Shown here one piece after another: positions 1-43,067 of a DNA stretch of 43,067 nt. The notes below the pieces were generated by a model, which was not told the origin of the DNA, did not search any database, and saw nothing but the letters and a program-made list of their open reading frames with translations. The position numbers were made by a program, and so were the translations under genes. Each line of letters begins with the position of its first letter. Position 1 is the stretch's first letter. Where the stretch lies: the IMG/VR virus record IMGVR_UViG_3300045988_098493, positions 1 through 43,067 of that record; one strand, 5' to 3'. The DNA comes from a virus.

Positions 1-580
1 GTGGCCGTGACCGTGCAGCTGCCCGCCTTGACGGCCTTGACCACACCACCGGAAACCGTCGCATAACCGCTGGGCAAGACCGTCCATGTCACGGTCTTGT
101 TGGTGGCGTTGCTGGGCAGGACTGTGGCCGTCAGCGTCTCGCTGCTGCCCTCGGTCAGGCTCAGGGTGGATTTGTTGAGCGTCACACTGGACACCGCGAC
201 TGTCGCCGCCACCGCCGTCGCTGTGATGGTCACGTTACCGGTCACGCTGGCGATGGAGACGACCCGGGTGCTGGCGCTGTAAGCGGACGACGTGATGTCT
301 GCGCCGCCCATTTTGATGGTCACGCTGGACATGGTGAAGCCGGAGGCTGCTGTCAGGGTGGCTGCAAACGAGCTGCCCTGCGCCACGCTGGCCGTGCTTG
401 TGGAGCTGGTCACATGGCTCAGACTGTAGGTGACGCTGTAATAGGTCGGCGACGGCGTGGGCGTGTCCCCGCCACTCTGCCCAAACTCCGTCTTGAGGGC
501 GTCCAGCTGGCTCTGCATGGTGCTGTTACCGTATGCCGCCGACTCAAACAGCGACAAGATCAGCGTTTTTGCGGTGTCAG
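1..580. repeat. Left copy of the window-terminal inverted repeat (partner 42484-43067)
   Basis: Positions 1-75 are the exact reverse complement of 42993-43067. The first mismatch is at position 76. Homology then continues with scattered substitutions and a small indel to about position 580. Confidence 0.9.
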
Positions 581-11946: not shown

Positions 11947-12150
11947 TTAGTAATCACGGAAGGGACAGGCTTCACAAATCTGCTTCCAGTCGGGCTTTAC
12001 CTTGAATCGGGCAGGGATGCAGCGGTCAATGACTCCCTGATTGGACTGACAATCGCCGGGTTCAATCCAGTCCTCTACCAGAGGACACTTGACACTTTCT
12101 GCTGTACCGGTTTTGTCCGGCCTGTACTCTACATTATCTAAGAATGCCAT
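11947..12150 (-). CDS. Small Cys-rich protein (67 aa), possible zinc-binding
   Basis: MAFLDNVEYRPDKTGTAESVKCPLVEDWIEPGDCQSNQGVIDRCIPARFKVKPDWKQICEACPFRDY has 5 Cys including CxxC. GAGGAG lies upstream. Its start overlaps the 3' end of the MuF gene by 17 nt. Confidence 0.6.
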   Translation of the reverse strand: MAFLDNVEYRPDKTGTAESVKCPLVEDWIEPGDCQSNQGVIDRCIPARFKVKPDWKQICEACPFRDY

Positions 12151-22120: not shown

Positions 22121-22250
22121 CAGAACGCCCCCTGCTTCCAGCCCGCAGACGGTGCGGCTTTGGGTTCGGGCGGCGGCAGGAACCGGGTGAGCCGCAAGGA
22201 ACGGGAAGCGCTGGAAAAGCGTGTCCTGCGCGGCGAGATCATCACGTTAT

Positions 22251-22326
22251 AACCTCTCAGGCGCTTTGCGCCAGCTCCCCTGATAGGGGAGCCACTGGCG
22301 AGCCGGTTTTGGCGCTGCTGGATGAA
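22251..22326 (+). repeat. Copy a of the ~76-79-nt two-hairpin repeat family
   Basis: AACCTCTCAG-GCGC-TTT-GCGC-CAGCTCCCCT-GAT-AGGGGAGCC-ACTGGCGAGCCGGTTTTGGCGCTGCTGGATGAA. It lies in the divergent intergenic region upstream of the second capsid gene. Confidence 0.85.
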
Positions 22327-22411
22327 AAAAAGCACGAGCTTTCGGAAGGCGATGGACTCCGCGACAGAGTTCGGGCGATTCTGAAACAATAAACCATTAG
22401 GAGGAAAGACC

Positions 22412-23440
22412 ATGAAAGACAAGACCATGAAGCTCGACTTGCAGCTGTTTGCACAGGCAAGCACCGAGCTGAAGAACACCACTTCGACGTCCGGCATGAC
22501 CGCCGAGATGAAAACCTACTACGAAAAGCGTCTGCTGGATCAGGCGGAACCGGCGCTGGTGCATGACCAGTTCGGCGACAAGTACCCCATTCCGCAGAAC
22601 GGCGGCAAGACCATCGAGTTCCGCAAGTACGACAGTCTGCCCAAGGCGACCACCCCGCTGACGGAAGGCGTGACCCCGAACGGTCAGGCGCTGAACGTCT
22701 CCACCATCACCGCCGAGGTGAAGCAGTACGGCGGCTGGACCCCCATCACTGACACCCTGCAGCTGACTGCCATCGATAACAACATCGTTCAGGCGACCAA
22801 GATCCTTGCGTCTCAGGCGGGCCGCACCATCGACAGCGTGACCCGCGATATCCTTGCGGGCGGCACGAACGTCATCTATGCGCCGAAGGTGGGCACGGAC
22901 GGTGCAGAGACGGCGGTGACCAGCCGCGCAACGCTGGACACGACCTGTCAGCTGACCTCGAAGCTCATCATGAAGGCGGCCACCCAGCTGAAGGCGATGA
23001 ACGCGGATCCCATCGATGGCGGCTACATCGCCATCATCCACCCGTATGCGTCCTATGACCTGCGGAATGACCCGGCATGGATCGACGTGCACAAGTATGC
23101 CCAGCCGGACGAGATCTACAACGGCGAGATCGGCAAACTGCACGGCGTGCGCTTCGTGGAGACGAGCGAAGCGAAGATCTGGAAGGGCACGGGCTGCCCC
23201 AGCGGTCTGGCCGTGTTCGGTACGCTGATCTTGGGCGCTCATGCCTACGGTGTGACCGAACTGGAAGGCGGCGGTCTGGAACACATCGTCAAGCAGCTGG
23301 GCTATGGCGACGACCCGCTGAACCAGCGTGCTTCCGTGGGCTGGAAGGCCACCCAGACCGCAGAACGTCTGGTGGAGCAGTACATGGTGCGCATTGAGAG
23401 CTGCTCGAAGGAATACAGCGCCATTGCGGCGGCGAACTAA
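22412..23440 (+). CDS. Second major capsid protein, HK97-fold (resembles the N4-gp56-type MCP family common in Clostridia phages), with a Prp-type N-terminal motif
   Basis: AGGAGG lies 7 nt upstream. 342 aa. The N-terminus is MKDKTMKLDLQLFAQAS. The core, SAEMKTYYEKRLLDQAEPALVHDQFGDKYPIPQNGGKTIEFRKYDSLPKATTPLTEGVTP, matches my recollection of this MCP family. It is unrelated in sequence to the capsid gene at 10374-11192. Confidence 0.78.
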   Translation: MKDKTMKLDLQLFAQASTELKNTTSTSGMTAEMKTYYEKRLLDQAEPALVHDQFGDKYPIPQNGGKTIEFRKYDSLPKATTPLTEGVTPNGQALNVSTITAEVKQYGGWTPITDTLQLTAIDNNIVQATKILASQAGRTIDSVTRDILAGGTNVIYAPKVGTDGAETAVTSRATLDTTCQLTSKLIMKAATQLKAMNADPIDGGYIAIIHPYASYDLRNDPAWIDVHKYAQPDEIYNGEIGKLHGVRFVETSEAKIWKGTGCPSGLAVFGTLILGAHAYGVTELEGGGLEHIVKQLGYGDDPLNQRASVGWKATQTAERLVEQYMVRIESCSKEYSAIAAAN

Positions 23441-23514
23441 CCTCTCAGGCGCTTTGCGCCAGCTCCCCTAGCAGGGGAGCCATTGGCAGGTCGGTTTTGG
23501 CTCTGCTGGATGAA
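23439..23514 (+). repeat. Copy b of the two-hairpin repeat family
   Basis: It starts within the TAA stop codon of the capsid gene. The first 41 nt are identical to copy a; the loop of hairpin 2 differs (AGC instead of GAT). Confidence 0.85.
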
Positions 23515-23573
23515 AAAGGCGTCTCAAAACCGGAAACAGTTTGGCCCTGCAGAAAAGGGCAGAAGGAGTTTAT

Positions 23574-24307: not shown

Positions 24308-24384
24308 ACCTCTCAGTCACCTTCGGTGACAGCTCCCCTAAATAGGGGAGCCATTGGCAAGTCGGTTCTGGCTGTGCTGGACGA
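24307..24384 (+). repeat. Copy c of the two-hairpin repeat family
   Basis: Hairpin 1 is replaced by GTCACC-TTC-GGTGAC through compensatory changes. Hairpin 2, GCTCCCCT-AAAT-AGGGGAGC, is conserved. Confidence 0.85.
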
Positions 24385-24438
24385 AGAAAGCTTATGATGT
24401 CGGGAGCGGGATGGCTCCGCGACAGAGGGAAAAGAAAG

Positions 24439-26295
24439 ATGGAATTCAATCTAATCAGCAGCTCACGGCAGATGCTGCGGGCCTTTGGGGGCCTGAACGA
24501 GACTTACGGGTGCGGTGAAGCAGAACTGAGCCAAGGCAGGAATTTTTCGAGCCGGGGTTATCCGGCGCTGGCGACCCGGAAACACCGGCGGCATGTGCGG
24601 CACGCGGCAGCGACGAACGGCATGTATCACCTGAACGGACTGCTGGTCGTTTCGAGGCGGGACCTCATCTATAACCCGGACGAGACGCCCCAGAAGGCAA
24701 GCTTTGTATGGAATGCGGTGACGGACAGCGAAAAGCAGATGATCGGCATGGGCACGAAGGTGCTGATCTGGCCGGACAAGGTGGCGTTCGACACCAAGGA
24801 CCTGTCGGTGACGAAGCTGGGGGCAGAATGGAAATTGAGCAGTCAAAATGCTGTCACTGGGATCAAAAGCGTCAGCTTTACCCCCTGCGATGTGGCAGGT
24901 AAGACCTACACGGTGACCCAGCGCGGGGCCACGGAACCAGAGGACCCGGACGATGGAACATTGTTTCTTAAGCTGAACGACCAGAAGGAGCCTTACAGCA
25001 GCGAAAATGTTTTGGAAATCTACAGCGCGGCCACAGGAAACTGGTCCGCCATCGAGCTGAACTGCTGCAAGCTGGAAGCGACCGGAATCGGCAAAGATTT
25101 TGCGGTCGGGGATACCGTGACCATAAGCGGCATGAGCGGCTCAGAAGAGCATCTGAAGGGTCTGGACGGTGACCATGCTGTTTCTGCAAGGGACGACGAC
25201 TGGATTCAAATTGAGTTGGAATCCAGTGGAACAATGTTTTACGGTGTGCTCACAAAGCTCGCAGACAAGATTCAGTGGATCGGCATCGACGGGATGGGGG
25301 TTGCCGGAAAAGATGACAAACAGGAATTTGTATTGGAGCGACGGGTCCCGGATATTGATTTTCTGACCGAATGCGACAACCGGGTGTGGGGCTGCTCGAG
25401 CAAGGAAAACGTCATCTATGCGTGCAAGCTGGGCGACCCGTCGAACTGGTTCTCGTACCGTGGAACGGCGGCGGACAGCTACGCTGTGAACGTGGGCAGC
25501 GACGGGAGCTTTACCGGCGCGGCCACCTGCATGGGCTATGTGCTGTTCTTCAAAGAAAACTGCATCCACAAGCTGTACGGCTCGAAGCCGTCCGACTACC
25601 AGATGAGCAGCGTGAAGTGCGCGGGCGTGGCCAAGGGGGCCGCGAAGAGCCTGTGCGTGCTGAACGAGGTGCTGTATTACTTTTCGCCGTCCGGCGTGAT
25701 GGCGTGGGACGGGAGCTTGCCCACGAAGGTGAGCGGGAATCTGGAAACCGAACGGCTGAACACGGCCCTGCGGGCTGTGGGCGGGGCGCTGGGCGGACGG
25801 TATTATCTGTACCTCGCGGCGAAGGAGAGCCAGCGGCTGCTGGTGCTGGACACCGAACGCGGCTTATGGACCGAAGAGGACCCGGCTGGACAGGAGATGT
25901 GTTCGACCGGGCGGCAGCTCTATCTTTACGATGGAGAGTCTTTGTGGGGCGTGGACCCTGACAAGGACGAAGGCGAACTGGACCGGGTGCAGTACGAGAT
26001 GGTGACCGGCGACATCGGGCTGGCGCTGGCCGACGACAAATATATTTCCCGGGTTACCATCCGGCTGGATGCGATGGAGCGGGGCGTGGTGACAGTATGG
26101 GCCAGCTACGACGGCGGGGCTTGGAAAGAAGCCGGAAGAGCCGACGTTTCGGACAAGTGGACGCGGGTGAATCTGCCCTTTGTGCCGGAACGGTGCGACA
26201 CGCTGCGGCTGAAGCTGACCGGGACCGGACAGCTTGTGGTGCGAAGCATCGCCCTGACCCTTGCTTCGGCGATGGGAAACCGGGCAGGAAAATAA
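24439..26295 (+). CDS. Large beta-rich virion-like protein (618 aa), function unknown (possibly tail or nozzle)
   Basis: I prefer the ATG at 24439, with GAGGGAAAAG upstream. The C-terminal half has recurring strand-like motifs (VIYACKLGDPSNW, IHKLYGSKPSDYQ, GVMAWDGSLPTKV, RYYLYLAA, QLYLYDGESLWG), suggesting a repeated beta architecture. Confidence 0.65.
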   Translation: MEFNLISSSRQMLRAFGGLNETYGCGEAELSQGRNFSSRGYPALATRKHRRHVRHAAATNGMYHLNGLLVVSRRDLIYNPDETPQKASFVWNAVTDSEKQMIGMGTKVLIWPDKVAFDTKDLSVTKLGAEWKLSSQNAVTGIKSVSFTPCDVAGKTYTVTQRGATEPEDPDDGTLFLKLNDQKEPYSSENVLEIYSAATGNWSAIELNCCKLEATGIGKDFAVGDTVTISGMSGSEEHLKGLDGDHAVSARDDDWIQIELESSGTMFYGVLTKLADKIQWIGIDGMGVAGKDDKQEFVLERRVPDIDFLTECDNRVWGCSSKENVIYACKLGDPSNWFSYRGTAADSYAVNVGSDGSFTGAATCMGYVLFFKENCIHKLYGSKPSDYQMSSVKCAGVAKGAAKSLCVLNEVLYYFSPSGVMAWDGSLPTKVSGNLETERLNTALRAVGGALGGRYYLYLAAKESQRLLVLDTERGLWTEEDPAGQEMCSTGRQLYLYDGESLWGVDPDKDEGELDRVQYEMVTGDIGLALADDKYISRVTIRLDAMERGVVTVWASYDGGAWKEAGRADVSDKWTRVNLPFVPERCDTLRLKLTGTGQLVVRSIALTLASAMGNRAGK

Positions 26296-28571: not shown

Positions 28572-28982
28572 TCAGGCGAGGTGGAGCTGATGCTTCAAGG
28601 CATCTTGCAGGACCTGACTGAAATTGACATTCCGTTCCAGTGCGGCGGCGTTGAGCCACGCGGGAAGCGTGACGGTGCGGCTGACCGACTTGTTCACGCT
28701 GGCAAGGCGGATCGAAGGCATATAGGCATCGACCAGAACGACACGCTCGTTCTCTTTTGGTTCGATGGAAGAAAGTGCGGAAGGCGCGGGGATGGGTTCA
28801 CCATCTTCTTCCAGACCACACATCACACAACCAAGAAGTTCGCGGGCGGAGAGGAGCGCGTCCTCTTCGCTCGTGCCGCTTGTGGCGACGCCCAGATCTG
28901 GAAAATCGACCGCGATCTCCTGCCCTTCTTCATAGATGAATACCGCCGGATAGAAATAGCGGTCAGGCAGATTCTTTTTCAT
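28572..28982 (-). CDS. hicB: HicB antitoxin (HicB fold + C-terminal RHH-like DNA-binding tail)
   Basis: ATG at 28982 with GGAGG upstream. MKKNLPDRYFYPAVFIYEEGQEIAVDFPDLGVATSGTSEEDALLSARELL is the typical HicB N-terminus. The C-terminus is RTVTLPAWLNAAALERNVNFSQVLQDALKHQL. Confidence 0.85.
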   Translation of the reverse strand: MKKNLPDRYFYPAVFIYEEGQEIAVDFPDLGVATSGTSEEDALLSARELLGCVMCGLEEDGEPIPAPSALSSIEPKENERVVLVDAYMPSIRLASVNKSVSRTVTLPAWLNAAALERNVNFSQVLQDALKHQLHLA

Positions 28983-29002
28983 ACAGAAAACCTCCAATCA
29001 AA

Positions 29003-29200
29003 TCAACGGAACTTCAAACCGGATTGTTGCTCGATCCGATTCAATGTCGGCCTTGGAATATCTTTATCAGGGTCTTTTACCGTCACACGGCCTGTTTTGG
29101 TGGGATGCTTGAACTGGTGGTGACTGCCGACACAGTTCACCTCATACCAGCCATCCGCTTTTAGGGCCTTTATGACTTCCCGCGAAGAATAGCTTTTCAC
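29003..29200 (-). CDS. hicA: HicA mRNA-interferase toxin
   Basis: GTG at 29200 with GAGGAG 8 nt upstream gives a 65-aa product. (V/M)KSYSSREVIKALKADGWYEVNCVGSHHQFKHPTKTGRVTVKDPDKDIPRPTLNRIEQQSG is the canonical HicA pattern, including the GSHxxxxH motif. Confidence 0.85.
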   Translation of the reverse strand: MKSYSSREVIKALKADGWYEVNCVGSHHQFKHPTKTGRVTVKDPDKDIPRPTLNRIEQQSGLKFR

Positions 29201-29220
29201 ATCATCATCTCCTCGATAAC

Positions 29221-29249
29221 AGGATAACACATAGAATAATATTTGTCAA
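29221..29249 (-). promoter_or_regulatory. Sigma-70-type promoter for hicAB
   Basis: The minus strand reads TTGACA - 17 nt - TATCCT, immediately upstream of the hicA RBS. Confidence 0.55.
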
Positions 29250-29267
29250 CAGGAAAGGAAAACGGAT

Positions 29268-32200
29268 ATGGCGGTCACAAAAAGCCAACTTGCGCAATGG
29301 AGCAAGGAATATGAAGCGAAGCACCCGGACCGGAAAAACAAAGATACCTATCAGGGAAAGACTACGGCGCAGACGACCGCGGCGGCACAGCCGAAAACGG
29401 AACGAGTCACCCGAGAGCAGCTTGCACAGTGGGGCAAAGAATTTGATGCCAAGCAACAGGCCAAGAAAACGCAGGAGCGGGAAAACCTGTATGCGGCCGC
29501 CTATGACAGCTACCGGACGAACAACAATCTGGGGCTGGCGGACGAACTGGACAGCCGGAGTGACTGGCTGAACCAGCAGGACCTTGGGACCAAGGATGTT
29601 TACAAAGACGTGAACCGGTGGCGGGACACCGACGACAACCAGAACCTGATGGACGCCGTGCGGCGGGTGGACAGCACCCACGGAGCCTATACGGACGCGG
29701 ACCTGATCAAAAACGGCGGGTGGACACAGGCACAGATCGACCGGGCACGGGAGATCAATGCACAGTATGACACCGTTCCGCTGCTGGAAAAGGCCGAGCG
29801 GAGAATCGGAAACAGCGCGAAGAGCGTTGCGGCCAATGTTTCCGGCGCGGCGGCGATGGCTGCGGGTGCGCTGCCACAGGCAGTTGGCACGGAAGTGAAG
29901 GACGACGACCGCACCCGCACCCTGATGCGGGCCATCCAGCGCGTGGACGGAACGAACGGCATGTACACGGACCGAGACCTGATCCGGGCCGGATGGACGG
30001 CAGAAGAGATCGCCGATGCCCGTGCCCGACTGGCCCAAGGACAGGCCAGCGTGAAGGTGGACAACCCTGTTTACAACTGGGGCAGGGACACCCACCAAAA
30101 AGGCGAAGAGCTGCTGGCCGATGCACAGGCGGGCGAGAGCGGCGTACAGAAGTTCATGCACAGTGCGGCGCTGAGCGCCGGAGAAAACCTCGTGCTGGGA
30201 GCGGTGAATCCGGCGCTGGTGCTGCCCGTTCTGAGCTTGCAGGGCGCGGGCGACAGTCTGGCGGCCAGCGACGAGAGGGGCGAAAGCCCGGAAAAGGCTA
30301 TGACAAAGGCCGCGCTGAAGTTCGGCGCCGGCTGGGCCATCAACAGAGTGGGCGCGGCAGACCTTGCCAAGACGATGGGTTCCGATTATGCCAAAGATAC
30401 CGTGGCGGGGCAGATCGCGGACTTTGTGCGCGGCATGGCGGGTGAATCTCCGTTTGCACAGCAGTATCCCGCCATTGCGAACGCCGTTTCGGGCGGCATC
30501 GACAACGCCATGCAAGCGTTCGTGGAGAGCTATGCTGATCAGGCTATCGATGCAGCACTGGGCGACACGGAGACCGCCCAGAAGATGTTCACCAAGGAAA
30601 ACTTCCTGAGCGCACTGGAAAGCGGGCTTTCGGGCGGTGTATCCGGCGCGATGGGCGGCGCTGCGGGCACAGGCGTGGGTGCTGTGAAAGAAAAGGCAAA
30701 ACAGACGGCGGTGAATGCGGCACAGGAACGGGCGGCTCAGGCCGGACAGACCATCCAGCAAACGGAAACGGCAGCGAAAAAGACCCAGCAGCGCACACAG
30801 GAACCCGGGATGCAGAGCCAGACTGTGCAGGAAGGGGCAGCGGAAAAAGCAGCGGTCGCGGAACCGAAGGCTGAAAGCGCTGCGGAAGAAAAAACGGAAC
30901 CGGCAGAACCTGTGAAAAGCCAGAATGCAAACCCTGCAGTTCGGCAGTTCGAACAGGCTGTGGAAGCCGGTGGCCTGACGGGAAAGACCATACGGCTGTT
31001 TACGCCGGAAGCTGGAAATGAAGCCAACCGTGCCGCGCTGGAAGAAGCCTATGGCGTGAAGCTGCCGGAAACTGCGGCATCGACCCGGCGGATGCTGCGG
31101 GATTTGGCTGCACAACAGAACGAAGTAAAAAGTGCGGCGGCCGCACACCCGGAAATCAAACCGCAGACTGTGGAAAAGGCTGGGGAAATGGTGGAAACCT
31201 CTCAGTCTGCTGGCGCAGACAGCTCCCCTAATGAGGGGAGCCATTGGCAGGACGGGACAGCTGTGCTGGATGAACAAAGCCCAACGGTGCAGAAAATCGA
31301 TGGCCCTGCGGCAGAGGGCAGAGACTACTCGGACGCAGAGCTGAAGGCTGACCCGGCGGCATCTGAGGGCAGCGGCCCGCTGCGGGAAACCTATGGACTG
31401 CGGGAGCCGAGCAGTCAGACGGCCCGACAAGCGGAAGTGGCAAGCACTCTGAAACAGTGGGGCATCAAGAGCGACAGTGCCGTGCAGGACATCAGCCAGA
31501 AGCTGCCCAAAGGTGTGGAAGCCAAGCGGTATGCAGCGGCGGCATCGACCATTTACCGGGTGGCGCAGATGGAAGAGGTGAAGAGCTTCGACGATGCGCT
31601 GAAGCTGGCGGGCGCGATGAACCATACGGCTTTGAATGTGAGCTATGTGCTGGACAGCGGCGACGCCGGACGGCTGGCGCTGAAGCAAGCTTATCTCTAT
31701 GGTGCGGATATCAAAGAACAGCCGAACTATGGCGGTCAGCTGACGAGCATGAGCACGAGCGGAGAAGGAACCGTTTATTACAAAGGAACACTGGACCACA
31801 ACGGGGCCGACATGGGAAGCCGCCTGATCGAGCTGAATGCAAAAGCCACCGGCACGGATGCCATTTTGCAGAACGTGCTTCAGAATGACCCAAATGTAAA
31901 AGCCTACGTGGACACGGAAACAGGGCGTATTTTCTTCGGCGACAGCGTGACAGATCTGTTTGGGACCATCCTGCACGAGGATTATCATTGGTATAACTCG
32001 CTGGACAGCGAGGGAGCAAAGACGCTTCAGGATCATGCCCTGCAGTATCTGGCCGAGATGGACGGATACGAGAGCGTCGATGAGATGATCCGGGAAAAGC
32101 TGGACGTCTATGCACGGCAGGGATTGACCTATGCACAGGCCGCTGAAGAGCTTGTAGCGGATGCATGGCGGGGAATCTTTTCGACGGAAGCAGATTTCAA

Positions 32201-35200
32201 GTGCTGGGTGGAGTTCCAGCGCGGTCAGGCTGAGAAAAACGCGGGCACAGCGGGCAAGGTGAAGGCTGTAATGAACCGGGTGAAGAAGTTGCTGACGGAC
32301 ATCATCAGCCGCGCAAAGGAAGTTCTGACCCATGACCCGGACAATGCGGCCGCGCTGAAAGCGAAGCGTCTAGCCGAAGCAGAACGGCGTATTTTACAGG
32401 ACGAATATTTTGCCCATGCGGAAAAGGCGATGGACAACCTGCGGGCGGCAAAAGAAAACGCCGCTGCCCTCAAAACAGAGGACACGGCGGGAAGAAAAGG
32501 GATTCGGTTCTCGATTCAGAAAAATGCTGACGGTGAAAGCTACATCAAGATCGACGAAGATATTCTAAAGGATGTTCCGCAGGAAGAATGGAAAGCGGTC
32601 GTCAAGCAGACCATTAAAGACCGGTATCCAAATGGTTTTCAGCGGAACGGATGGACGATTTTGAATCATAAAGATGGAAGAAGTGAATTTGTTCGTTCTA
32701 AATCAACGATGATGTTGCAACGAAGCAATGAAAAGATTTATGTAGATAAAATGCGGATGGCCGCGAATCTGGATGAGATCATTCAAACGGCGGATGAAGT
32801 GTATCGTGAACCCGCAAATCATAAGAATGCAGAAGCATTCAACCGAGGAAAAATCGAAATTCAGGTCGGTCAAAATTTCTATGAGGCGGATGTTCTGACG
32901 GCTATCAAGGCAGATGATCGGGAGATTTTCTATGATATCGTTAATATCGCCCCGGTAAACAATAAAGCCCTCTCGCGTACCCACATGGAATCGAATGATT
33001 CGGGGAGTAGTCTGCGAGAAGGCTTTATAGAACCCTTCGGTGGTACCCACATAGAATCCGAAGATTCAAGGAGTAGATTGCCGAAGGGTTCGATGGAGAC
33101 CTCCGGCAAAGCCCACATGGAATCCGAAGATTCGGGGAGCAGAGGGTCGGAAGTCTCTAAACAAAGTATAGCACAAGATTTCACTGAAAGCAAGAGAACC
33201 GACGAACCTGTGAAAAAATCGGTGCGGTTCCAGCTGGGAACGCCGGTGGAGGTGGACACCAAGAAGGACCTTGTGGCGGTCCACAACCTGACGGAAGAGA
33301 ATCTGAAGGAATCGTTGGAGCTGGGAGGGATGCCGTCGCCGTCCATCGCGGTGGTCAAGGCGCAGGAAGGGCATACGAAGTATGGTCCTATTTCGCTGGT
33401 GTTTGGCTCGGATACCATTGACCCGGCGGTGAACAGCGCAAACCGCGTTTATGGTTCGGATGCGTGGACCCCGACAAGGCCGAATGTGGAGTATAAGATA
33501 AACGAGAAGGCACGGAACCAATTTGAAACCGCAGTAGACGACGCAAGCCGCAACGCTTTTGAAGGGAAATTTGCAAACAGCTCGGCTTTGCAGCGGATCG
33601 GCGTCGGCGATGTGAGCGGCGAGAGCCGAACGGAATTGGCCCAGAGACTGCAGAACGACACGGCGGTGCAGCTGGCCTATCTGAAGGCCAAGGGCGAAAC
33701 AGTGGAACCAGTGTATAAAACGGAACGGGACCAGTTCGACAGCCTTGGAAACGATGCCTTGGAAAAGGTCATCGAACATGTAGGCGGGGATGACCTCCGG
33801 GCAGTTTTTGAAAACGGTGACTTTGAACTCATGGACCAGCTGGCAGACAAAGCGGCAGATGCACTGGAAGAAAAGTACACCCATGGAACGCTGGAAGGAC
33901 AGAACCGGCGCTGGCAGATGCGGATCGATAAGCTGCGGAACAGCAACCGTGACCGGCTGTATGGGATGCTCGAGCACGCCTATAAGATGCTGACGGACAC
34001 CAGCGGCGGAAAGCCGACACTGGATGTGGAAGGGACGAGGACCGCGATTCGGGAAGCTGCCCCGGAAAATGAGGTCAAAAATTGGGTCTATGAGCAGCTG
34101 GGCAGCGTCTTAGGCGAGAAAGGAATCCGGAACAGCAAGGACCGTTTTACAGCGGGCGGAAAGAGCCGGACCTTTGAACAGCTGCACAACCCTTACACGC
34201 TGCAAAATCTTGTGGCGGCAATGAACCAGCAGAACGCCAGAGGGCAGGATGTCTGGGGGCTTTCGGCCAATACCCTGATGAGCACCGCGACGGCAGAATA
34301 TCAGAATCTGGACGAGGTACGGGCGGACAAAGGCCGCTTGCAGCAGATGCCGGAAGAAGAGTATCAGAAGCTGCTGAAACAGGCAGACCAGCAGATCGAA
34401 GCAGTCATCGACCAGCTCCGGAAAGAAACAACTGCGCACGCCGACAACAGCTTCGAAGAACGGGAAATCCTTGGTGATATCCTTCTGCGGGCTGCGCAGG
34501 GAAAACAGACCATGGCAGCGGTGACCAAAGCATTCGCGAAAGAAGATTATGCCATCAGCCGTGAGACGGCAAAGCAGATCGTGGCGCTGTACAAAACCAT
34601 TGCGGACATCCCGACCGGTTACTTTGAAGCAAAGCCCCAGCGGGCGGTGGACTTTGAGGAAGTCCGGGCGGCGATCGTGCCGGATAACACATCTTCGGAG
34701 GTGCTGAATGCGCTGAAGGAAAAGGGCGTGACCGTCTACGAATACAAGGCCGGAGACGATGCCCAGCGCACGAAGCTGCTGAATCAAGTGCCGAATGTCC
34801 GGTTCCAGCGTGCCGATCAGGCTGACCGGGATGCAAAACGGAACCGCCAGAGACAGGCCAGCCGGGTGATCGCGGACAACAGCGCGGCCATCCGGACGCT
34901 GACTGAGATGATGGGCCTGACCCGGGGCGTGCGGGTGAGCGATGACAGCATTCTGGGCAAAGCTGAACAGCTGATCAAAGCCAACGGCGCAAAGGGAAAG
35001 GCGGATGCGGAACATGTGGCGCGGGAGATGCGGACGCTGCTCGAGTACATGCGGACGGACGGCGCAGACATGAACAAGGCGCAGGGCCTTGGCGAAACGA
35101 TCGCGGGCGAGATCCTTGACCATGCGACCTACCGGAACACAGAGCTGTGGGAGCAGTTCCCGGAATACCATGATCTGAGCTATACTGTAGACAAAAACGG

Positions 35201-38200
35201 CAAAGCGAAAGCGGAACTTGTGCGCCAGTATGGCAGCTGGGGCGAAGCGGTAGCCGAAGCCAGACGCCACGGTGTGAAGCTGCGGCAGGAAGAAGGTCAC
35301 CGGGACGGCAACCCGGCGGAACAATATGAATCCATCGTCAACGATACCCGGGCCACGGGCGGCGTGAAGGACGGCGCGGCGGCGCTGTTCCGGAGTGCGG
35401 CAAAGGCAGCGGGCGTAGAGGGTGCGGCCAGCATGGAGAGCACCGAGTGGCTGGACGTGCTGATGAACGTGCATGACGCCATCAAGCCGAAGATGATGAG
35501 CCGGTTTGAGGATGTGTCTGAGTATGAGGACGCCAAGGTGGAACTGGCGGGCCGGATCATCGGGGAACTGATGAACGTGCCCGAGATGAGCGACGCACAG
35601 GCTATTTTTGACTCTTTCCAGCAATGGCAGCGAAAGGCCGCTGCGGCAGCAGCCGGAGACGAAGAACGTGCAGCCAAGGCTGTGAAGGACCTGAAGAGCG
35701 TGCAGAAAGAGCAGAGAAAGGAATTTGACCGGCGGCTGCGGGAAAATCAGAAATCCGGAAACCAGAGCGATGCTGTGCAGCAGATGACAGAAGCGGAACG
35801 GCTGTTGGACGAGAATCTGGATGCACTGGGCGTGGACATCACCAATGCGGGCGACATGGCGGAGAAGCTGGATGTGCTGAAGGAAGCCTACGAGCGGGAA
35901 TGGAAAGCAGAGCGGAAGCGGCTGACGGATGCCCGGCAGGAAATGCTGGATGAAATCGCGCTGGAACACCGGGAACTGCGGACGCAGATCGATAGTCTGA
36001 GCGCAGAAGTTGCCGGAGAACGGCGCAGAGCCGACTTTGCGGAACAGCAGCTGATCTATCAGCAGGACGAGATGATGGAATGGGCTGTGGAGAATAACCG
36101 GAAGAAAGAAGAATGGGAGGAAAAACAGCGCATCCGGAACGAAAAGGCCAAGGAACTGATGGAAAAGCACGAAGCAGAAAACAAGGCCCATGCTCAGATG
36201 ATCGCTGAAAAGCGGGTGCAGCGGGTGCGGGATGGCCGGAAGGCAGAAGAACTGAAGCGGAGTATCCGGAATAATCTGGCCCAGCTGAACCAGATGGTAC
36301 TGCGGCCGACAAAGGGCAAATATGTGCAGCCGCGGCTCATCCAACAGGCGATCGAGGTGGCGAAGCTGGCAGACATGACCATCCTGAACGAAACCGCAGT
36401 ACGGCAGCTGACGGTGCTGGAAACGAGCATCAGCCAGACGATGGGCGACGCAAACGACCCCAGCAGCCTTGCCTACGACTGGGACAAGACCGGCGTGCCG
36501 AAGATGATCCAGACCCTGCGGGCGGACCTGACGAACACGAAACAGGCAAAGCTCGACAAGCTGCACCAGCAGCTGACCGAAGCCGAAGCGCTGGGCGACA
36601 GTGACAAGGCTGAACAGCTGCGGGACCGGCTGAAGCGGCGGATCAAGGAGACCGAAGCAAGGACCTATCTGCCCATGACGGTGGACCAGCTGCGGATGCT
36701 GAAGGCCATCACGGCGGGAACGCTGCATGTGATCCGGACTGAGAACAAGACCTTGAGCCTTGCCAAGACTGAAGAGATCGACACCTTTGCCCAGAACGCA
36801 GGGTTGGAAGTGCTGGCTGCAAAGGGCAACGAAATGGGACGGCTGCGGGACATGCTGACCAAGTATAACCTTGATATGCTGGGGGCAAAGCGAGTGTTCC
36901 GGATGCTGGGCGGCTATGCCAAGAACAGCCAGATGGAGCGGATCGCCGACATGCTGAACGACGGCCAGCGGCGGCAGACCGAGATCACAGTGGAAGGAAC
37001 GAAGCTGTTTGACGATGTGACCGGCAAGGCAAACCTCAAGCAGATGGAAAAATTCGCAGGACCCGGCGCGGAGTTGGTGGACATCGGCCTGAAGGACCGG
37101 AGGAGCAGAGCTGTGCCCTTGACCCACGCCCAGCTGTGCAGCCTTTACATGCATTTGCAGAACGCGGACAGCCGGGAGCATTTGCTGAACGGCGGTCTGG
37201 TCCTGCCGGATGCAAAGAAGTACAACAAGGGCAAGATCGAACGGGCGTATCAGCAAGGGCAGACCGTGCAGATCGGGATGCTGACGGACAGCGAAGGAAA
37301 CGCTATGGCAGACACGATCCTGAACGCGGTGGAAAATGCCTTGACGGACTACGACCGGGCGTGGATCGCGGACATGCAGGAGTTTTTCGGCAATTATACC
37401 ACGAAGCTCATCAACGAAACGAGCATGAAGCTGGTAGGCTTCCAGCGGGCAAACGTGAAGAACTATTACCCCATCGCGGTGGACCGGGCACAGCTGGCAA
37501 CCGAGATCGAGGGCCTGAAGCTGGATGCGACCATCGAAGGACGCGGCTTTTTGAAAGAGCGTGTGAAGAGCGGCAAGCCCATCTTGCTGGAAGAGTGCAG
37601 CAGCGTCGTGCAGCGAAGCTTGCGGGATACGGCAGCATACGCAGGACTGGCTGCACCCATCCGGGATGCGAACCGAATCCTGAATGCTGATGTGGAAACG
37701 CGGGACGGCATCGGAAAGTTGAAGAACGGCATCATTAAGGAACATTGGGGTCAGGATGCTGTGAACTACATGGATTACCTGCTGACGGACCTGCAATCGA
37801 AGCAGCGGAAGCGCTCGGACGGCATCGGGCGTGTGATGAGACGGAATTACGCAGGGGCGATCCTGACACTGAACCCCGGCGTTGCCATCGCACAGGCGGC
37901 GTCTCTGCCCACGGCGGGTGCGGTTCTGGGCAGCGATACCATGGCGGCAGTTCTGCCCTTCGTGAAGAATCTTTCTTCCAAGCAGCGGACCGCGCTGGAA
38001 GCTGAGATCAGCAAGCACGGGGATGCCCTGCTGCAATACCGTTTGCGCGGGAGCCAGCGCGGAGAACTGGCATCCGTCGGCGTGGACAATGGAGCCGTGC
38101 AGAACCTGATGGATGCCCTGCCTAAGAGCGTGACCGGCTGGATCAACGGCATGGATGAGATCACGGTCGCGGCTCTGTGGGAAGGTGCGAAGCATTATGT

Positions 38201-39713
38201 GGAGCACCACCCGGCGGAATTTGACGACGGTGCAAAGACAAAAAACAGCGAAGAATATTGGGCGGCAGTCAATCAGATGTATCAGCGGGTCATTGAGGAG
38301 ACCCAGCCGAACTATACCGTGATGCAGCGGGCGGGTATCCAGCGAAGCGACAACGAGATCACCAAGACGCTGACCATGTTCACAACTCAGCGCTTCCAGA
38401 ATTACGGCATCCTGGCCGACGCCGTGATGGACTATAACGCTCAGAAGGCGCGGTATAGGACCCAGAATAACGAGCAAAATAAGGCGGAACTGGACCGTGC
38501 GGGCCGGAATCTGCGGCGGGCGGCATCCAGTCAGGTGATCCAGACCGCAGTTTTTGCATTGATGAAAATCGGCGCGGACTTCCTGCTGCACCGCTGGGAC
38601 CGGGAACAGGACGAGAACGGAGATGTGACCGCCAAAAGTCTGTGGAACCGGTTTGCAGGGCTGTTCACGGAGAGTGCGGCGGGAAACTTCCTGTTTGGCT
38701 CTGAGGTCTACAGCATCATCGGCAATGCTGTGAACGGGACGGATTATGATGTGGTGAGCGCTACCAACATCAGCGCTGTCAACGACCTGTTTGCCGCGAC
38801 TTCGAAACTGTACACACTGATCCGGAAGGACACCACCGGCATGGACGAAGAAGAACTGGACGCATATCACCAGAAACTCCGGAAGGCGGGCGTCAACGTG
38901 ATGGAATACGGGTTGGACATCCTCGGTGTTCCGGCAGCGAATGCCCGGAAGATGGTGGATGCATTCGGGGCCTATGCGGAAGATGTGAAGGGCCTTGCAA
39001 AGGGCGAAGGAATCAGTCTCAGCTCTGCACCCAGCTCGGCCACCGGACAGTATGACCGGCTGTTCAACGCCATCCAGAGCGGCGACAGCGACGAAGCGAA
39101 AGCGGCGCTGAAAAAGCTGGACCAGATGGGAAAGACCGACCAAGTGGACAGCCAGCTGAAGAGCCGGCTGAAAAAATACGATGATGATATTCTGGATGCG
39201 GCCAAGGCCCGGAATGAGGGCAAGGACAAAGACCGGCAGGACGCGACAAAGCGATGCATCCTGAAGCTATATGATGCCATGGGCATCGAGCGGACCGGCA
39301 AAGGTGACGTGGCCAAGCGGGAAGAAGTGATCGACCTTGTGACGAGCGCTGTGAATGCCAAGGCTGACGAACTGCTGAAGGCCAAGGACGATGGCAGCAG
39401 TTACAGCAGCGTTTACGGCGGCCTGACCGATGCACTGGAAAGCGGACGCGCGAAGGACGTGAACGACGAGATCAGCCGACTTCTGACGGCGGGCAAGAGT
39501 GCGGATGCTATCAAGTCGGCCATCACAGGACAGGTGAAGGACGAGTATCTGGCAGGAAGCAGCGCCGACCGGAAGAAGCTGGAAACCATGCTGCTGAAGC
39601 TGAGGGCGGATGGAAAGGCACTGTATGAGGAAAAGAACTTCGAAACGTGGTTGAAGGATGCAGAAAAACAGAAGGCGACCGCGAAGAAGGATGAGTGGAA
39701 GGGGGTAAGATAA
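29268..39713 (+). CDS. Giant 3481-aa virion-associated polyvalent-type protein (HExxH metallopeptidase-like motif, Gly-rich hydrophobic segments, a low-GC inserted domain, long coiled coils)
   Basis: An uninterrupted 10.4-kb ORF. HEDYH is encoded at 31974-31988 within DLFGTILHEDYHWYNSL. The hydrophobic G/A-rich zone spans aa ~300-480 and the K/E-rich coiled coil spans aa ~2050-2250. The architecture recalls the polyvalent proteins of phages and conjugative elements. Confidence 0.85.
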   Translation: MAVTKSQLAQWSKEYEAKHPDRKNKDTYQGKTTAQTTAAAQPKTERVTREQLAQWGKEFDAKQQAKKTQERENLYAAAYDSYRTNNNLGLADELDSRSDWLNQQDLGTKDVYKDVNRWRDTDDNQNLMDAVRRVDSTHGAYTDADLIKNGGWTQAQIDRAREINAQYDTVPLLEKAERRIGNSAKSVAANVSGAAAMAAGALPQAVGTEVKDDDRTRTLMRAIQRVDGTNGMYTDRDLIRAGWTAEEIADARARLAQGQASVKVDNPVYNWGRDTHQKGEELLADAQAGESGVQKFMHSAALSAGENLVLGAVNPALVLPVLSLQGAGDSLAASDERGESPEKAMTKAALKFGAGWAINRVGAADLAKTMGSDYAKDTVAGQIADFVRGMAGESPFAQQYPAIANAVSGGIDNAMQAFVESYADQAIDAALGDTETAQKMFTKENFLSALESGLSGGVSGAMGGAAGTGVGAVKEKAKQTAVNAAQERAAQAGQTIQQTETAAKKTQQRTQEPGMQSQTVQEGAAEKAAVAEPKAESAAEEKTEPAEPVKSQNANPAVRQFEQAVEAGGLTGKTIRLFTPEAGNEANRAALEEAYGVKLPETAASTRRMLRDLAAQQNEVKSAAAAHPEIKPQTVEKAGEMVETSQSAGADSSPNEGSHWQDGTAVLDEQSPTVQKIDGPAAEGRDYSDAELKADPAASEGSGPLRETYGLREPSSQTARQAEVASTLKQWGIKSDSAVQDISQKLPKGVEAKRYAAAASTIYRVAQMEEVKSFDDALKLAGAMNHTALNVSYVLDSGDAGRLALKQAYLYGADIKEQPNYGGQLTSMSTSGEGTVYYKGTLDHNGADMGSRLIELNAKATGTDAILQNVLQNDPNVKAYVDTETGRIFFGDSVTDLFGTILHEDYHWYNSLDSEGAKTLQDHALQYLAEMDGYESVDEMIREKLDVYARQGLTYAQAAEELVADAWRGIFSTEADFKCWVEFQRGQAEKNAGTAGKVKAVMNRVKKLLTDIISRAKEVLTHDPDNAAALKAKRLAEAERRILQDEYFAHAEKAMDNLRAAKENAAALKTEDTAGRKGIRFSIQKNADGESYIKIDEDILKDVPQEEWKAVVKQTIKDRYPNGFQRNGWTILNHKDGRSEFVRSKSTMMLQRSNEKIYVDKMRMAANLDEIIQTADEVYREPANHKNAEAFNRGKIEIQVGQNFYEADVLTAIKADDREIFYDIVNIAPVNNKALSRTHMESNDSGSSLREGFIEPFGGTHIESEDSRSRLPKGSMETSGKAHMESEDSGSRGSEVSKQSIAQDFTESKRTDEPVKKSVRFQLGTPVEVDTKKDLVAVHNLTEENLKESLELGGMPSPSIAVVKAQEGHTKYGPISLVFGSDTIDPAVNSANRVYGSDAWTPTRPNVEYKINEKARNQFETAVDDASRNAFEGKFANSSALQRIGVGDVSGESRTELAQRLQNDTAVQLAYLKAKGETVEPVYKTERDQFDSLGNDALEKVIEHVGGDDLRAVFENGDFELMDQLADKAADALEEKYTHGTLEGQNRRWQMRIDKLRNSNRDRLYGMLEHAYKMLTDTSGGKPTLDVEGTRTAIREAAPENEVKNWVYEQLGSVLGEKGIRNSKDRFTAGGKSRTFEQLHNPYTLQNLVAAMNQQNARGQDVWGLSANTLMSTATAEYQNLDEVRADKGRLQQMPEEEYQKLLKQADQQIEAVIDQLRKETTAHADNSFEEREILGDILLRAAQGKQTMAAVTKAFAKEDYAISRETAKQIVALYKTIADIPTGYFEAKPQRAVDFEEVRAAIVPDNTSSEVLNALKEKGVTVYEYKAGDDAQRTKLLNQVPNVRFQRADQADRDAKRNRQRQASRVIADNSAAIRTLTEMMGLTRGVRVSDDSILGKAEQLIKANGAKGKADAEHVAREMRTLLEYMRTDGADMNKAQGLGETIAGEILDHATYRNTELWEQFPEYHDLSYTVDKNGKAKAELVRQYGSWGEAVAEARRHGVKLRQEEGHRDGNPAEQYESIVNDTRATGGVKDGAAALFRSAAKAAGVEGAASMESTEWLDVLMNVHDAIKPKMMSRFEDVSEYEDAKVELAGRIIGELMNVPEMSDAQAIFDSFQQWQRKAAAAAAGDEERAAKAVKDLKSVQKEQRKEFDRRLRENQKSGNQSDAVQQMTEAERLLDENLDALGVDITNAGDMAEKLDVLKEAYEREWKAERKRLTDARQEMLDEIALEHRELRTQIDSLSAEVAGERRRADFAEQQLIYQQDEMMEWAVENNRKKEEWEEKQRIRNEKAKELMEKHEAENKAHAQMIAEKRVQRVRDGRKAEELKRSIRNNLAQLNQMVLRPTKGKYVQPRLIQQAIEVAKLADMTILNETAVRQLTVLETSISQTMGDANDPSSLAYDWDKTGVPKMIQTLRADLTNTKQAKLDKLHQQLTEAEALGDSDKAEQLRDRLKRRIKETEARTYLPMTVDQLRMLKAITAGTLHVIRTENKTLSLAKTEEIDTFAQNAGLEVLAAKGNEMGRLRDMLTKYNLDMLGAKRVFRMLGGYAKNSQMERIADMLNDGQRRQTEITVEGTKLFDDVTGKANLKQMEKFAGPGAELVDIGLKDRRSRAVPLTHAQLCSLYMHLQNADSREHLLNGGLVLPDAKKYNKGKIERAYQQGQTVQIGMLTDSEGNAMADTILNAVENALTDYDRAWIADMQEFFGNYTTKLINETSMKLVGFQRANVKNYYPIAVDRAQLATEIEGLKLDATIEGRGFLKERVKSGKPILLEECSSVVQRSLRDTAAYAGLAAPIRDANRILNADVETRDGIGKLKNGIIKEHWGQDAVNYMDYLLTDLQSKQRKRSDGIGRVMRRNYAGAILTLNPGVAIAQAASLPTAGAVLGSDTMAAVLPFVKNLSSKQRTALEAEISKHGDALLQYRLRGSQRGELASVGVDNGAVQNLMDALPKSVTGWINGMDEITVAALWEGAKHYVEHHPAEFDDGAKTKNSEEYWAAVNQMYQRVIEETQPNYTVMQRAGIQRSDNEITKTLTMFTTQRFQNYGILADAVMDYNAQKARYRTQNNEQNKAELDRAGRNLRRAASSQVIQTAVFALMKIGADFLLHRWDREQDENGDVTAKSLWNRFAGLFTESAAGNFLFGSEVYSIIGNAVNGTDYDVVSATNISAVNDLFAATSKLYTLIRKDTTGMDEEELDAYHQKLRKAGVNVMEYGLDILGVPAANARKMVDAFGAYAEDVKGLAKGEGISLSSAPSSATGQYDRLFNAIQSGDSDEAKAALKKLDQMGKTDQVDSQLKSRLKKYDDDILDAAKARNEGKDKDRQDATKRCILKLYDAMGIERTGKGDVAKREEVIDLVTSAVNAKADELLKAKDDGSSYSSVYGGLTDALESGRAKDVNDEISRLLTAGKSADAIKSAITGQVKDEYLAGSSADRKKLETMLLKLRADGKALYEEKNFETWLKDAEKQKATAKKDEWKGVR
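31196..31274 (+). repeat. Copy d of the two-hairpin repeat family, embedded in frame in the giant ORF
   Basis: AACCTCTCAG-TCTGC-TGGC-GCAGA-CAGCTCCCCT-AATG-AGGGGAGCC-ATTGGCAGGACGGGACAGCTGTGCTGGATGAA. It translates as TSQSAGADSSPNEGSHWQDGTAVLDE. Confidence 0.85.
32979..33150 (+). repeat. About 2.6 tandem copies of a 66-bp (22-aa) in-frame repeat in the giant ORF
   Basis: Units start at 32979, 33045 and 33111 (ACCCACATGGAATCGAATGATTCGGGGAGTAG...). Translation: THMESNDSGSSLREGFIEPFGG / THIESEDSRSRLPKGSMETSGK / AHMESEDSGSRGSE. Confidence 0.85.
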
Positions 39714-39720
39714 CGCAGGA

Positions 39721-39751
39721 CGCTCCGGCCAATTTGGCCGGGGCGTTTTTT
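39721..39751 (+). terminator. Intrinsic terminator after the giant gene
   Basis: CGCTCCGGCC-AATTT-GGCCGGGGCG, a 10-bp stem with one G-U pair, followed by TTTTTTG. Confidence 0.7.
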
Positions 39752-42321: not shown

Positions 42322-43067
42322 ATGAAATACACAAAACAAACGTGGACCGACGGCGTGACCGTATTGGATGCCGCGACGATGGAGCACATCGAACAGGGCA
42401 TCGCGGATGTGACCGATGCGGTGACGGAATTGCAGGAGAACGGCGGGAGTGGGAACACGGGCGGCAGCAGCGGTCTGAGCAGCACCGCCAAAACTCTTAT
42501 CTTGTCGCTGTTTGAGTCGGCAGCCTATGGCAATGCGGCCATGCAGAGCCAGCTGGACGCGCTCAAGACCGAGTTCGGCCAGAGCACGGGCGGCGGAGAC
42601 AGCGGCGACGTAGTGGAGTTCTGCAACATCGCATACAGCCTAAGTCATGTAACCAGCGCGGCTGGCGGCATTTCTACTGCGGTCCAGAAGGGCAAATCCT
42701 TCACGGATACCCTGACAGCGGCCTCCGGCTTCACCATGTCCAGCGTGACCATCAAAATGGGTGGCGCAGACATTACGTCCAGCGCCTACAACGCCAGCAC
42801 CCGGGTGGTGAGCATTGCCAGCGTGACCGGAAATGTGACCATTACGGCAACGGCGGTGGCAGCCACGGTCGCGGTGTCTAGCGTGTCCCTGAACAAATCC
42901 ACCCTCAGCCTGACCGAGGGCAGCAGCGAGACGCTGACGGCCACAGTCCTGCCCAGAAACGCCACCAACAAGACCGTGACATGGACGGTCTCGCCCAGCG
43001 GTTATGCGACGGTTTCCGGTGGTGTGGTCAAGGCCGTCAAGGCGGGCAGCTGCACGGTCACGGCCAC
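42322..43067 (+). CDS. Second tail fibre / receptor-binding protein, paralogue of 1-944; 3' end runs off the window
   Basis: ATG at 42322 with GGAAGGAG 8 nt upstream. The frame is open to the window end, and it is absent from the ORF track because there is no stop codon. MKYTKQTWTDGVTVLDAATMEHIEQGIADVTDAVTELQENGG.... From about aa 55 onward it is collinear with the left fibre, but it lacks the collagen-like run. Confidence 0.8.
   Translation, partial: MKYTKQTWTDGVTVLDAATMEHIEQGIADVTDAVTELQENGGSGNTGGSSGLSSTAKTLILSLFESAAYGNAAMQSQLDALKTEFGQSTGGGDSGDVVEFCNIAYSLSHVTSAAGGISTAVQKGKSFTDTLTAASGFTMSSVTIKMGGADITSSAYNASTRVVSIASVTGNVTITATAVAATVAVSSVSLNKSTLSLTEGSSETLTATVLPRNATNKTVTWTVSPSGYATVSGGVVKAVKAGSCTVTA
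42484..43067. repeat. Right copy of the window-terminal inverted repeat (partner 1-580)
   Basis: See the left copy (1-580). The last 75 nt are the exact reverse complement of the first 75 nt. Confidence 0.9.

Follow-up and report, generated by a model that had tools for sequence, protein, structure and literature searches.

Positions 29268-39713 of the IMG/VR virus record IMGVR_UViG_3300045988_098493 (43,067 nucleotides [nt] analyzed at full length and referred to here as the window) are occupied by one open reading frame (ORF) of 3481 amino acids (aa). Sequence comparison confirmed its predicted product, hereafter the giant protein, as a polyvalent-type protein that combines a PBECR5 domain, an LPD3-type cassette and a zincin-like domain in one chain. 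It is probably a single-chain giant polyvalent protein of a podophage, packaged as an internal protein and ejected, with effector cassettes mounted on a fixed scaffold. Such a protein would be synthesized late, enter the capsid as one of its internal proteins and leave through the portal and short tail, either preceding the DNA or accompanying it. In the host cell, the metallopeptidase may split the chain into functional units, and PBECR5 may then cleave host or defense RNAs in the newly infected cell, while the constrained N-terminal module (N-module) and C-terminal core (C-core) would serve loading and passage or conduit formation. We infer packaging and ejection from the position of the gene, the argument of Iyer et al. 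(2017) and the virion proteomics of phi24B gp47.

The giant ORF is genuine and specifies a single chain, and its presence cannot be put down to chance in GC-rich DNA. Another ENA scaffold is 100% identical to window positions 22606-42817, with the identical 3481-aa product called there, and an unbroken ORF of 2900 aa or more runs across the N- and C-terminal modules in 57 related IMG/VR loci from many metagenomes, which provide 55 distinct full-length orthologues of 3020-3645 aa. Ratios of nonsynonymous to synonymous substitution rates (dN/dS; NG86, approximate, with dS near saturation), calculated against five orthologues, are below 1 in all segments where they could be computed, and the strongest constraint falls on the N-module, the peptidase and the C-core. 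An earlier note on this DNA, made from the letters alone, had called a single ORF here, and these data bear it out. The gene is preceded by a promoter-like site, TCGATA-16-AATAAT at 29213-29240 (a consensus match only), and by the purine-rich Shine-Dalgarno-like AGGAAAGGA, seen by eye 7-10 nt 5' of the ATG. A GC hairpin with a T-run, also recognized by eye, follows the stop codon and was not called by a pattern scan for terminators. Two antisense ORFs opposite the gene (29205-32333, 1042 aa; 34110-39143, 1677 aa; both on the - strand) lack homology or comparable evidence and are most simply taken as shadow ORFs that arise from GC-rich coding DNA with a strand skew.

Pfam searches, which the earlier note had proposed, recovered PBECR5 (PF18814), a predicted RNase domain, at E=3.8e-78 and 263 bits (cut-off, 25) over profile positions 2-232 of 239. 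It coincides with the block VRFQLGTPVEV... that had been described as conserved-looking. Conservation reaches 95% or more across 56 sequences at H1339, N1340, S1359 and T1401, a pattern that would fit the His plus Ser/Thr configuration that Iyer et al. (2017, PMC5512222) describe for PBECR RNases. The whole PBECR5 cassette (aa ~1320-1840), made up of the domain and a 280-aa extension, is present in 56% of the orthologues only, and its identity pattern disagrees with that of its flanks, which indicates recombination.

A second cassette lies just upstream. GC content at nt 32450-33050 is 0.41-0.47 versus ~0.58 overall, in agreement with the low-GC inserted domain noticed before, and LPD3 is matched by 31 of 38 orthologous segments (best E=4.5e-11), with MuF_C/PBECR3 at the same slot in the other 7. 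Orthologues fall into two allele classes at this slot (nt 32415-33227, aa 1050-1320; slots in L087-L153): the LPD3-type allele is 54-78% identical to the window and the other class, part of it with MuF_C/PBECR3, 28-38%. On this sequence evidence, the low-GC insert is an exchangeable cassette, probably of LPD3 type.

The HEDYH motif stands exactly where it had been noticed (Table 1), and the zincin-like peptidase context proposed for it gained support from conservation and modeling. Across 17 diverse sequences, H903, E904, H907 and E961 never vary, the Glu lying ~54 residues downstream of HExxH, and an HExxH-type domain occurs in 96 of 148 family representatives, with HExxH itself retained in 78 of these 96 domains. 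Structure models generated with AlphaFold2 (AF2) cover aa 761-1030 and 2420-3330 of the giant protein. The first (predicted local distance difference test [pLDDT], 78.5) has a helix at model positions 89-101, strands at 104-108, 119-122 and 127-131, HExxH within a helix at 137-152 and the Glu within a helix at 195-210. This predicted topology matches the polyvalent MPTase as defined by Iyer et al. (2017, PMC5512222), in which a first helix and a sheet of three strands come with one helix that bears HExxH and another, further on, that bears the Glu. Foldseek, the use of which on segment models had also been suggested, returned mostly zincins as top PDB matches (deuterolysin, snake-venom and ADAMTS proteases, IrrE, selecase), the best at a nonsignificant E=0.69, and a profile of the domain retrieved snake-venom metalloproteinases from PDB at E=1-2, likewise not significant.

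The family is recognized above all by its C-core. The last 1182 aa of the giant protein match 2740 representative clusters (50% identity) at E<=1e-3, 965 of them below E=1e-30, and a coverage map places the part common to the family at aa ~2450-3300. It sits near the C-terminus of proteins of 2000-4450 aa encoded on contigs of ~40-44 kb. Its AF2 model is all-alpha and globular (pLDDT 74.8; predicted template modeling score [pTM] 0.70), and Foldseek found no match for it in PDB (best E=0.75), in keeping with the unknown fold ascribed before to the C-terminal region. Among the 64 BFVD matches at E<=1e-3, many are C-terminal pieces of large phage proteins; these relatives are often auto-named PolyVal ART, LPD, MuF-C or nuclease, and two, in Tenacibaculum phage Gundel_1 and Flavobacterium podophage elemoC, are named "Structural protein." Polar residues H2638, Y2733, K2763, R2765, Y2791, D2841, E2933 and D2963, together with the motifs TQPNY (3012-3016) and QRFQN (3041-3045), are invariant across phyla, which would suit an enzyme or a site of precise binding better than a passive scaffold. 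The C-core could be a new enzyme or a trans-envelope conduit.

Across the 103 family members of at least 2500 aa, taken as long representatives, the Gly/Ala-rich N-module occurs in 82, always N-terminal to the HExxH domain, and the peptidase domain in 87; all 71 that have N-module, peptidase and C-core keep them in this fixed order. Twelve distant members carry ART-PolyVal (7 of the 12) and also PBECR5, MuF_C, LPD3, PBECR3, GNAT and methyltransferase domains; this repertoire, added to the PBECR5 score, upholds the earlier assignment of the giant protein to the polyvalent type. The family architecture therefore runs from the N-module through the HExxH...E metallopeptidase, variable cassettes and a helical middle to the ~850-aa all-alpha C-core. 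No Pfam model matches the N-module or the C-core, and neither a phmmer search of PDB with the whole protein nor NCBIfam on the giant gene returned anything. In the accessible literature, there seems to be no description of a scaffold with these three fixed parts, of how large the family is, of the PDB-unmatched C-core or of the family's link to Prp, a P22-like portal and an N4-type capsid in podophages with small genomes. Genome records name mainly Clostridia of gut and rumen as hosts, including cultured Faecalibacterium, Papillibacter and Pseudoflavonifractor strains, with some Bacteroidota bins.

We put forward only tentatively a broader idea, namely, that the fixed scaffold defines a very large and distinct class of head-internal "carrier" proteins that replace MuF for loading and ejecting swappable anti-host effectors. 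Equally tentative is the profile of their phages, which would be podovirus-type, ~33-45 kb in size and endowed with a P22-like portal, Prp and an N4-type capsid, and would infect gut Clostridia and possibly Bacteroidota.

Table 1. Layout of the giant gene and its flanking signals (window coordinates)
Feature	Position (nt)	Strand	Basis or remark
Promoter-like site and Shine-Dalgarno	29213..29267	+	Consensus matches only
Whole giant gene, 3481 aa and stop	29268..39713	+	ATG start; identical product on second scaffold; 55 distinct single-ORF orthologues
N-terminal region, aa 1-270	29268..30077	+	Two pairs of duplicated motifs; least conserved part
Gly/Ala-rich N-module, aa 290-480	30135..30707	+	Composition; most constrained block
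Ala/Glu/Gln-rich variable linker, aa 481-760	30708..31547	+	Composition, orthologue comparison
Zincin-like metallopeptidase core (predicted), aa 849-970	31812..32177	+	HEDYH aa 903-907 (nt 31974-31988), Glu961 (nt 32148-32150)
LPD3-like domain, aa 1127-1218	32646..32921	+	Pfam LPD3 (PF18798), sub-threshold; in low-GC cassette nt ~32450-33050
Three degenerate 22-aa repeats, aa 1238-1303	32979..33176	+	Ser/Glu-rich linker; visible in protein
PBECR5 predicted RNase domain, aa 1319-1559	33222..33944	+	Pfam PF18814
Extension of PBECR5 cassette, aa 1560-1840	33945..34787	+	Conserved among orthologues with the cassette
Helical and charged middle region, aa 1841-2449	34788..36614	+	Conserved; present in 91/103 long representatives
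C-terminal all-alpha core, aa ~2450-3300	36615..39167	+	Family hallmark; 2740 clusters; AF2; Foldseek
Lys-rich C-terminal tail, aa 3301-3481	39168..39710	+	Composition, coverage map
Hairpin and T-run, terminator-like	39723..39751	+	Directly 3' of stop codon; by eye

The remaining parts of the chain largely conform to what had been read from the letters. The duplicated N-terminal motifs form two pairs, aa 4-20/48-64 and about aa 121-166/212-257, within a region where dN/dS is 0.23-0.92; the ratio is 0.07-0.09 in the Gly/Ala N-module (against the two closest orthologues). That module had been described as a Gly/Ala-rich hydrophobic zone at aa ~300-480. Its composition (G 13%, A 19%) holds, whereas its hydrophobicity is weak and was overstated: the Kyte-Doolittle peak reaches the listing threshold of 1.2, below transmembrane grade, and a transmembrane reading of the zone was ruled out by hydropathy. 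The 22-aa tandem repeat is present as three degenerate copies at the protein level only and was not found by Tandem Repeats Finder in the nucleotide sequence. The K/E-rich stretch was located at aa 2140-2420, where E, K, R and Q amount to 39% of residues.

The genomic setting of the giant gene was derived from 80 IMG/VR contigs carrying the N4-type capsid gene. Their order is HTH/TerS-like gene, TerL, P22-like portal, Prp fused to scaffold, N4-type capsid, genes for 130-, 633-, 63-, 194- and 471-aa proteins, giant gene and Big_2 fiber genes, which are followed in chromosomal prophages by endolysin, holin and integrase. Two distant members also have the giant gene among TerL, P22-like portal, Prp and capsid genes, in permuted order, on contigs of 43-44 kb. 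Its location inside the virion module in all contexts examined supports a late virion role, and it takes up 25-31% of the 33-44 kb genome in its phage group. The predicted carrier of the gene is a temperate, podovirus-type phage of Faecalibacterium, with the family in prophages of Faecalibacterium and other gut Clostridia. By capsid, the closest isolated phages are Bacillus phage Page and relatives (~37% identity); Page_20 (1679 aa) and the other Page virion proteins tested match no family module.

Two neighbors deserve mention. In giant-gene phages, the P22-like portal is always accompanied by a Prp-type cysteine protease (PF04327), encoded beside the scaffold gene or as a fusion with it (e.g., L005 8641-9987, L169 8853-9173 and L170 26733-27032); this protease could process capsid proteins or the giant protein. 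The 633-aa protein (window 24394-26295, + strand) matches PHROG 511, "internal virion protein," with its C-terminal half (E=1.1e-42) and has no Pfam or NCBIfam match; by position, it could be a podophage tail or nozzle protein.

The window itself joins two phages. Its left arm (~961-22190, - strand) is syntenic with the Faecalibacterium siphophage FP_Lugh at ~77% nucleotide identity and encodes a helicase, a primase, TerS, TerL, a portal, a MuF-type minor capsid protein, a scaffold, a tape measure and Dit; the right arm starts with an N4-gp56-family capsid gene (TIGR04387, E=2.5e-99). Homology to FP_Lugh stops at nt 22190, and homology to the Prp/scaffold gene of the other phage starts at nt 22188, with a 2-3 nt overlap. 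This sharp breakpoint truncates the podophage Prp/scaffold gene, of which the last 60-90 nt are kept; therefore, the window is a chimeric contig or a rearranged locus of two unrelated phages. FP_Lugh-arm genes were found in none of the 80 contigs, and an exact 38-mer spanning the junction at 22189 is absent from viral, metagenome and genome collections.

Two earlier statements have to be revised accordingly. The placement of the giant gene in a "second virion module" stands as regards its virion-gene context; its membership in one virion plan with the left arm does not, that arm being FP_Lugh-like siphophage DNA up to the breakpoint at ~nt 22189. The separate MuF gene seen in the other arm (12134-13675) belongs to that unrelated siphophage and is absent from the 80 related contigs, so the argument drawn from it about the giant protein fails. 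The giant protein itself has no match to the MuF family in Pfam at E<=1.

The ends of the window (1-576 and 42483-43067) are inverted copies of each other that agree at 83% of 588 aligned columns and extend to the first and last base. Both lie inside Big_2 fiber genes, and the left gene (- strand, ~1-950) additionally contains a collagen-like GATGATGAT repeat. The contig seems to have broken at a repeat common to two phages of one host. A circularly closed genome is unlikely: no terminal direct repeats were found, and the ORF at the window end stops 3 codons into the window start.

Some smaller elements surround the genes of the right arm. A HicB/HicA toxin-antitoxin pair (28572-28982 and 29003-29200, both on the - strand) lies antisense directly 5' of the giant gene, served by a separate promoter-like site (29249-29221) and followed by a strong terminator (28557-28524); a 180-aa + strand ORF opposite the pair (28581-29123) is probably spurious. 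In relatives, HicAB is found elsewhere in the module, and MazE/YafQ lies 3' of the giant gene in one of them (L002). An intergenic repeat of 48-80 nt, 83-90% identical among its copies (22250-22332, 23438-23520 and 24344-24391), lies on both sides of the capsid gene and ahead of the 633-aa gene. It contains two small hairpins, GGCGC-TTT-GCGCC and GCTCCCCT-N4-GGGGAGC, similar copies occur at several intergenic sites of related phages, and it may be a regulatory or RNA-processing element.

Several observations weigh against a packaged and ejected polyvalent protein or against parts of its description. The case for packaging of this family draws on gene context and analogy, and the chosen analogue, phi24B gp47, has no significant C-core or N-module match in hidden Markov model (HMM) or hhalign comparisons. 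The LPD3 score in the window is 18.4 bits for the whole protein and 23.6 bits for the isolated segment (gathering cut-off, 27). Pfam MPTase-PolyVal does not match the giant protein at E<=1, and the zincin matches of the HExxH domain in Foldseek and PDB-profile searches are not significant (E>=0.5). Hydropathy of the Gly/Ala zone is too low to predict membrane insertion. Both BFVD matches named "Structural protein" have low TM-scores (0.25-0.29), and a literature search did not trace the basis of the names in Gundel_1 and elemoC. At BLAST level, the C-core is present in no isolated phage of the GenBank phage collection; tblastn of that collection with the C-terminal half of the window protein and with a distant family fragment retrieved unannotated faecal contigs only. 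Finally, the N4-capsid module in the window is without its own TerL, its portal and most of the scaffold gene, so this copy may belong to a defective element or a chimeric contig.

If packaging is set aside, the giant protein might be made from the prophage or in the course of infection and act in the cytoplasm of the producing cell, for instance in anti-defense, superinfection exclusion or host takeover. In favor of such a role are the promoter-like site and terminator-like hairpin of the gene itself, the toxin-antitoxin morons that flank it in the window and in relatives, and the split two-gene versions in chromosomal prophages. We nonetheless regard it as unlikely: every context examined, including the permuted distant ones, places the gene within the late virion module, a phage that commits 25-31% of its 33-44 kb genome to a single late gene would more plausibly do so for a virion component, and the analogous giants N4 virion RNA polymerase (vRNAP) and phi24B gp47 belong to the virion.

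More improbable still is a structural role on the exterior of the particle or in length determination, as a giant tail fiber, a needle or a tape-measure-like protein whose enzymatic domains are incidental. The gene does lie just 5' of the Big_2 fiber genes, and its long helical and charged stretches and Gly/Ala-rich zone are of the kind seen in tape-measure proteins. However, no tape-measure, fiber or beta-helix family was matched in the giant protein, and the C-core model is globular and all-alpha, with the pTM given above. No tape-measure or tail-tube/sheath families were reported around the gene in relatives, distant members included, which leaves no long tail to measure, and the tape-measure gene of the window is a separate gene in the FP_Lugh-like arm. 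Cassette gain and loss also vary the length of the protein (3020-3645 aa) within one phage group, unlike a ruler.

A diverged virion RNA polymerase (RNAP) resembling N4 gp50 or the crAss-like RNAPs, the likeness to N4 having been raised in the earlier note, is very improbable, despite the similar size (3481 versus 3500 aa), the N4-gp56-family capsid, an HExxH in N4 vRNAP too (HELVH 2228) and its own classification among polyvalent proteins in PMC5512222. BLASTP against N4 vRNAP gave E>0.7, family HMMs were negative, and hhalign of a 12-member family profile returned a probability of 1.3%. The note had seen no RNAP catalytic motifs; in agreement, a search of all 3481 aa with the regular expression D.DGD found no DxDGD, and there is no Walker A motif and no RNAP family in Pfam or NCBIfam. 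Foldseek gave no significant PDB match for the C-core, in a structural test limited to aa 761-1030 and 2420-3330, and the N4 virion proteins gp51-59 have no similarity to the window apart from the capsid family. The sequence, profile and motif tests largely refute an RNAP identity. Hardly any credence can be given to an artificial fusion of two genes by assembly error or frameshift correction: two chromosomal Faecalibacterium-type prophages, both without the PBECR5 cassette, do have two genes (1408+1581 aa, L002 5684-14746; 1677+1700 aa, L003 5050-15103), nothing longer than 2061 aa was among the 120 matches listed in a word-indexed protein search and the window has a suspicious junction elsewhere, but the two split points differ (~aa 1900-1935 versus ~aa 1826 of the window protein), which suggests secondary decay, many homologues of 3000-4450 aa exist in the HMMER representative library, and both the uninterrupted ORF of the 57 loci and the identical product of the second scaffold argue for one gene.

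Polyvalent proteins are an established class, predicted and rarely shown to be an injected payload that disarms the host; relatives of the giant protein are already auto-named PolyVal, and an 8-kb ORF has been noted in C. clostridioforme prophages. What the giant protein adds is a widespread gut prophage group in which a single gene fills between roughly a quarter and a third of the genome, and a large, strongly conserved C-core found in 2740 clusters at 50% identity and without PDB relative. Genomes of cultured strains encode this core, for example, those of F. prausnitzii APC923/61-1 (NZ_PRLE01000001.1, around 178-185 kb) and F. langellae CNCM I-4541 (NZ_NMTR01000021.1, around 621-628 kb). 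One slot holds LPD3 or MuF_C/PBECR3, and another may or may not contain PBECR5; such natural domain swaps could serve to find out which parts are injected and by what means. Since the window is a composite of two phages, conclusions from its two arms should be kept apart and not combined.

Among known systems, the phage-type polyvalent proteins described by Iyer, Burroughs, Anand, de Souza and Aravind (2017, J Bacteriol, PMC5512222) and predicted there to be packaged come first. Like the giant protein, they join numerous effector and LPD domains of unrelated kinds, PBECR and LPD3 domains among them, in a single very large chain with a zincin-like MPTase as hub; their cassettes are quickly reshuffled between orthologues, and their genes adjoin those for portal, terminase and capsid. 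In contrast, the giant chain has no MuF, portal or DarA-N anchor in Pfam, its peptidase is not recognized by Pfam MPTase-PolyVal, and the fixed N-module and ~850-aa C-core of the family were not found described in the accessible text of that paper. In Clostridium clostridioforme LM41, prophages phi1 and phi4 have 8-kb ORFs that make up ~20% of the genome, show LPD3-type similarity and were suggested, in passing, to protect incoming DNA (PMC11318856). These are likened to the giant gene by description only, as unusually large LPD3-type ORFs of gut-Clostridia prophages.

The Stx podovirus phi24B offers another giant polyvalent protein of a short-tailed phage. Its gp47 (vb_24B_48, 2807 aa) was detected in virions by proteomics, is invisible in cryo-electron microscopy maps and has been proposed as an encapsidated ejection protein. 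The family peptidase HMM aligns weakly with the HExxH domain of gp47 (15.7 bits). Unlike the giant protein, gp47 has LPD5, LPD1, LPD38 and MuF-C domains and belongs to a phage of a Gram-negative host with a different capsid lineage.

An MPTase-type HExxH region is needed for encapsidation of N4 vRNAP, according to Iyer et al. (2017, PMC5512222). This protein (gp50, 3500 aa) is about equal in size to the giant protein and is also encoded with an N4-gp56-family capsid gene; it is carried in the capsid and injected, as the giant protein may be. The two differ in that the giant protein has neither sequence or profile similarity to gp50 nor RNAP motifs.

The internal core proteins gp14, gp15 and gp16 of T7 provide the last comparison. 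The giant protein, unlike these, has no lytic transglycosylase domain in Pfam, and the Foldseek search of PDB, which is believed to include T7 core-protein structures, returned nothing significant for the C-core. The phages with the giant gene resemble T7 (gp8 to gp17) in their order of portal, scaffold, capsid, small adaptor-like genes, large tail/nozzle-like gene, small genes, largest internal protein and fiber. In such an order, the giant gene presumably occupies the place of the largest internal protein.

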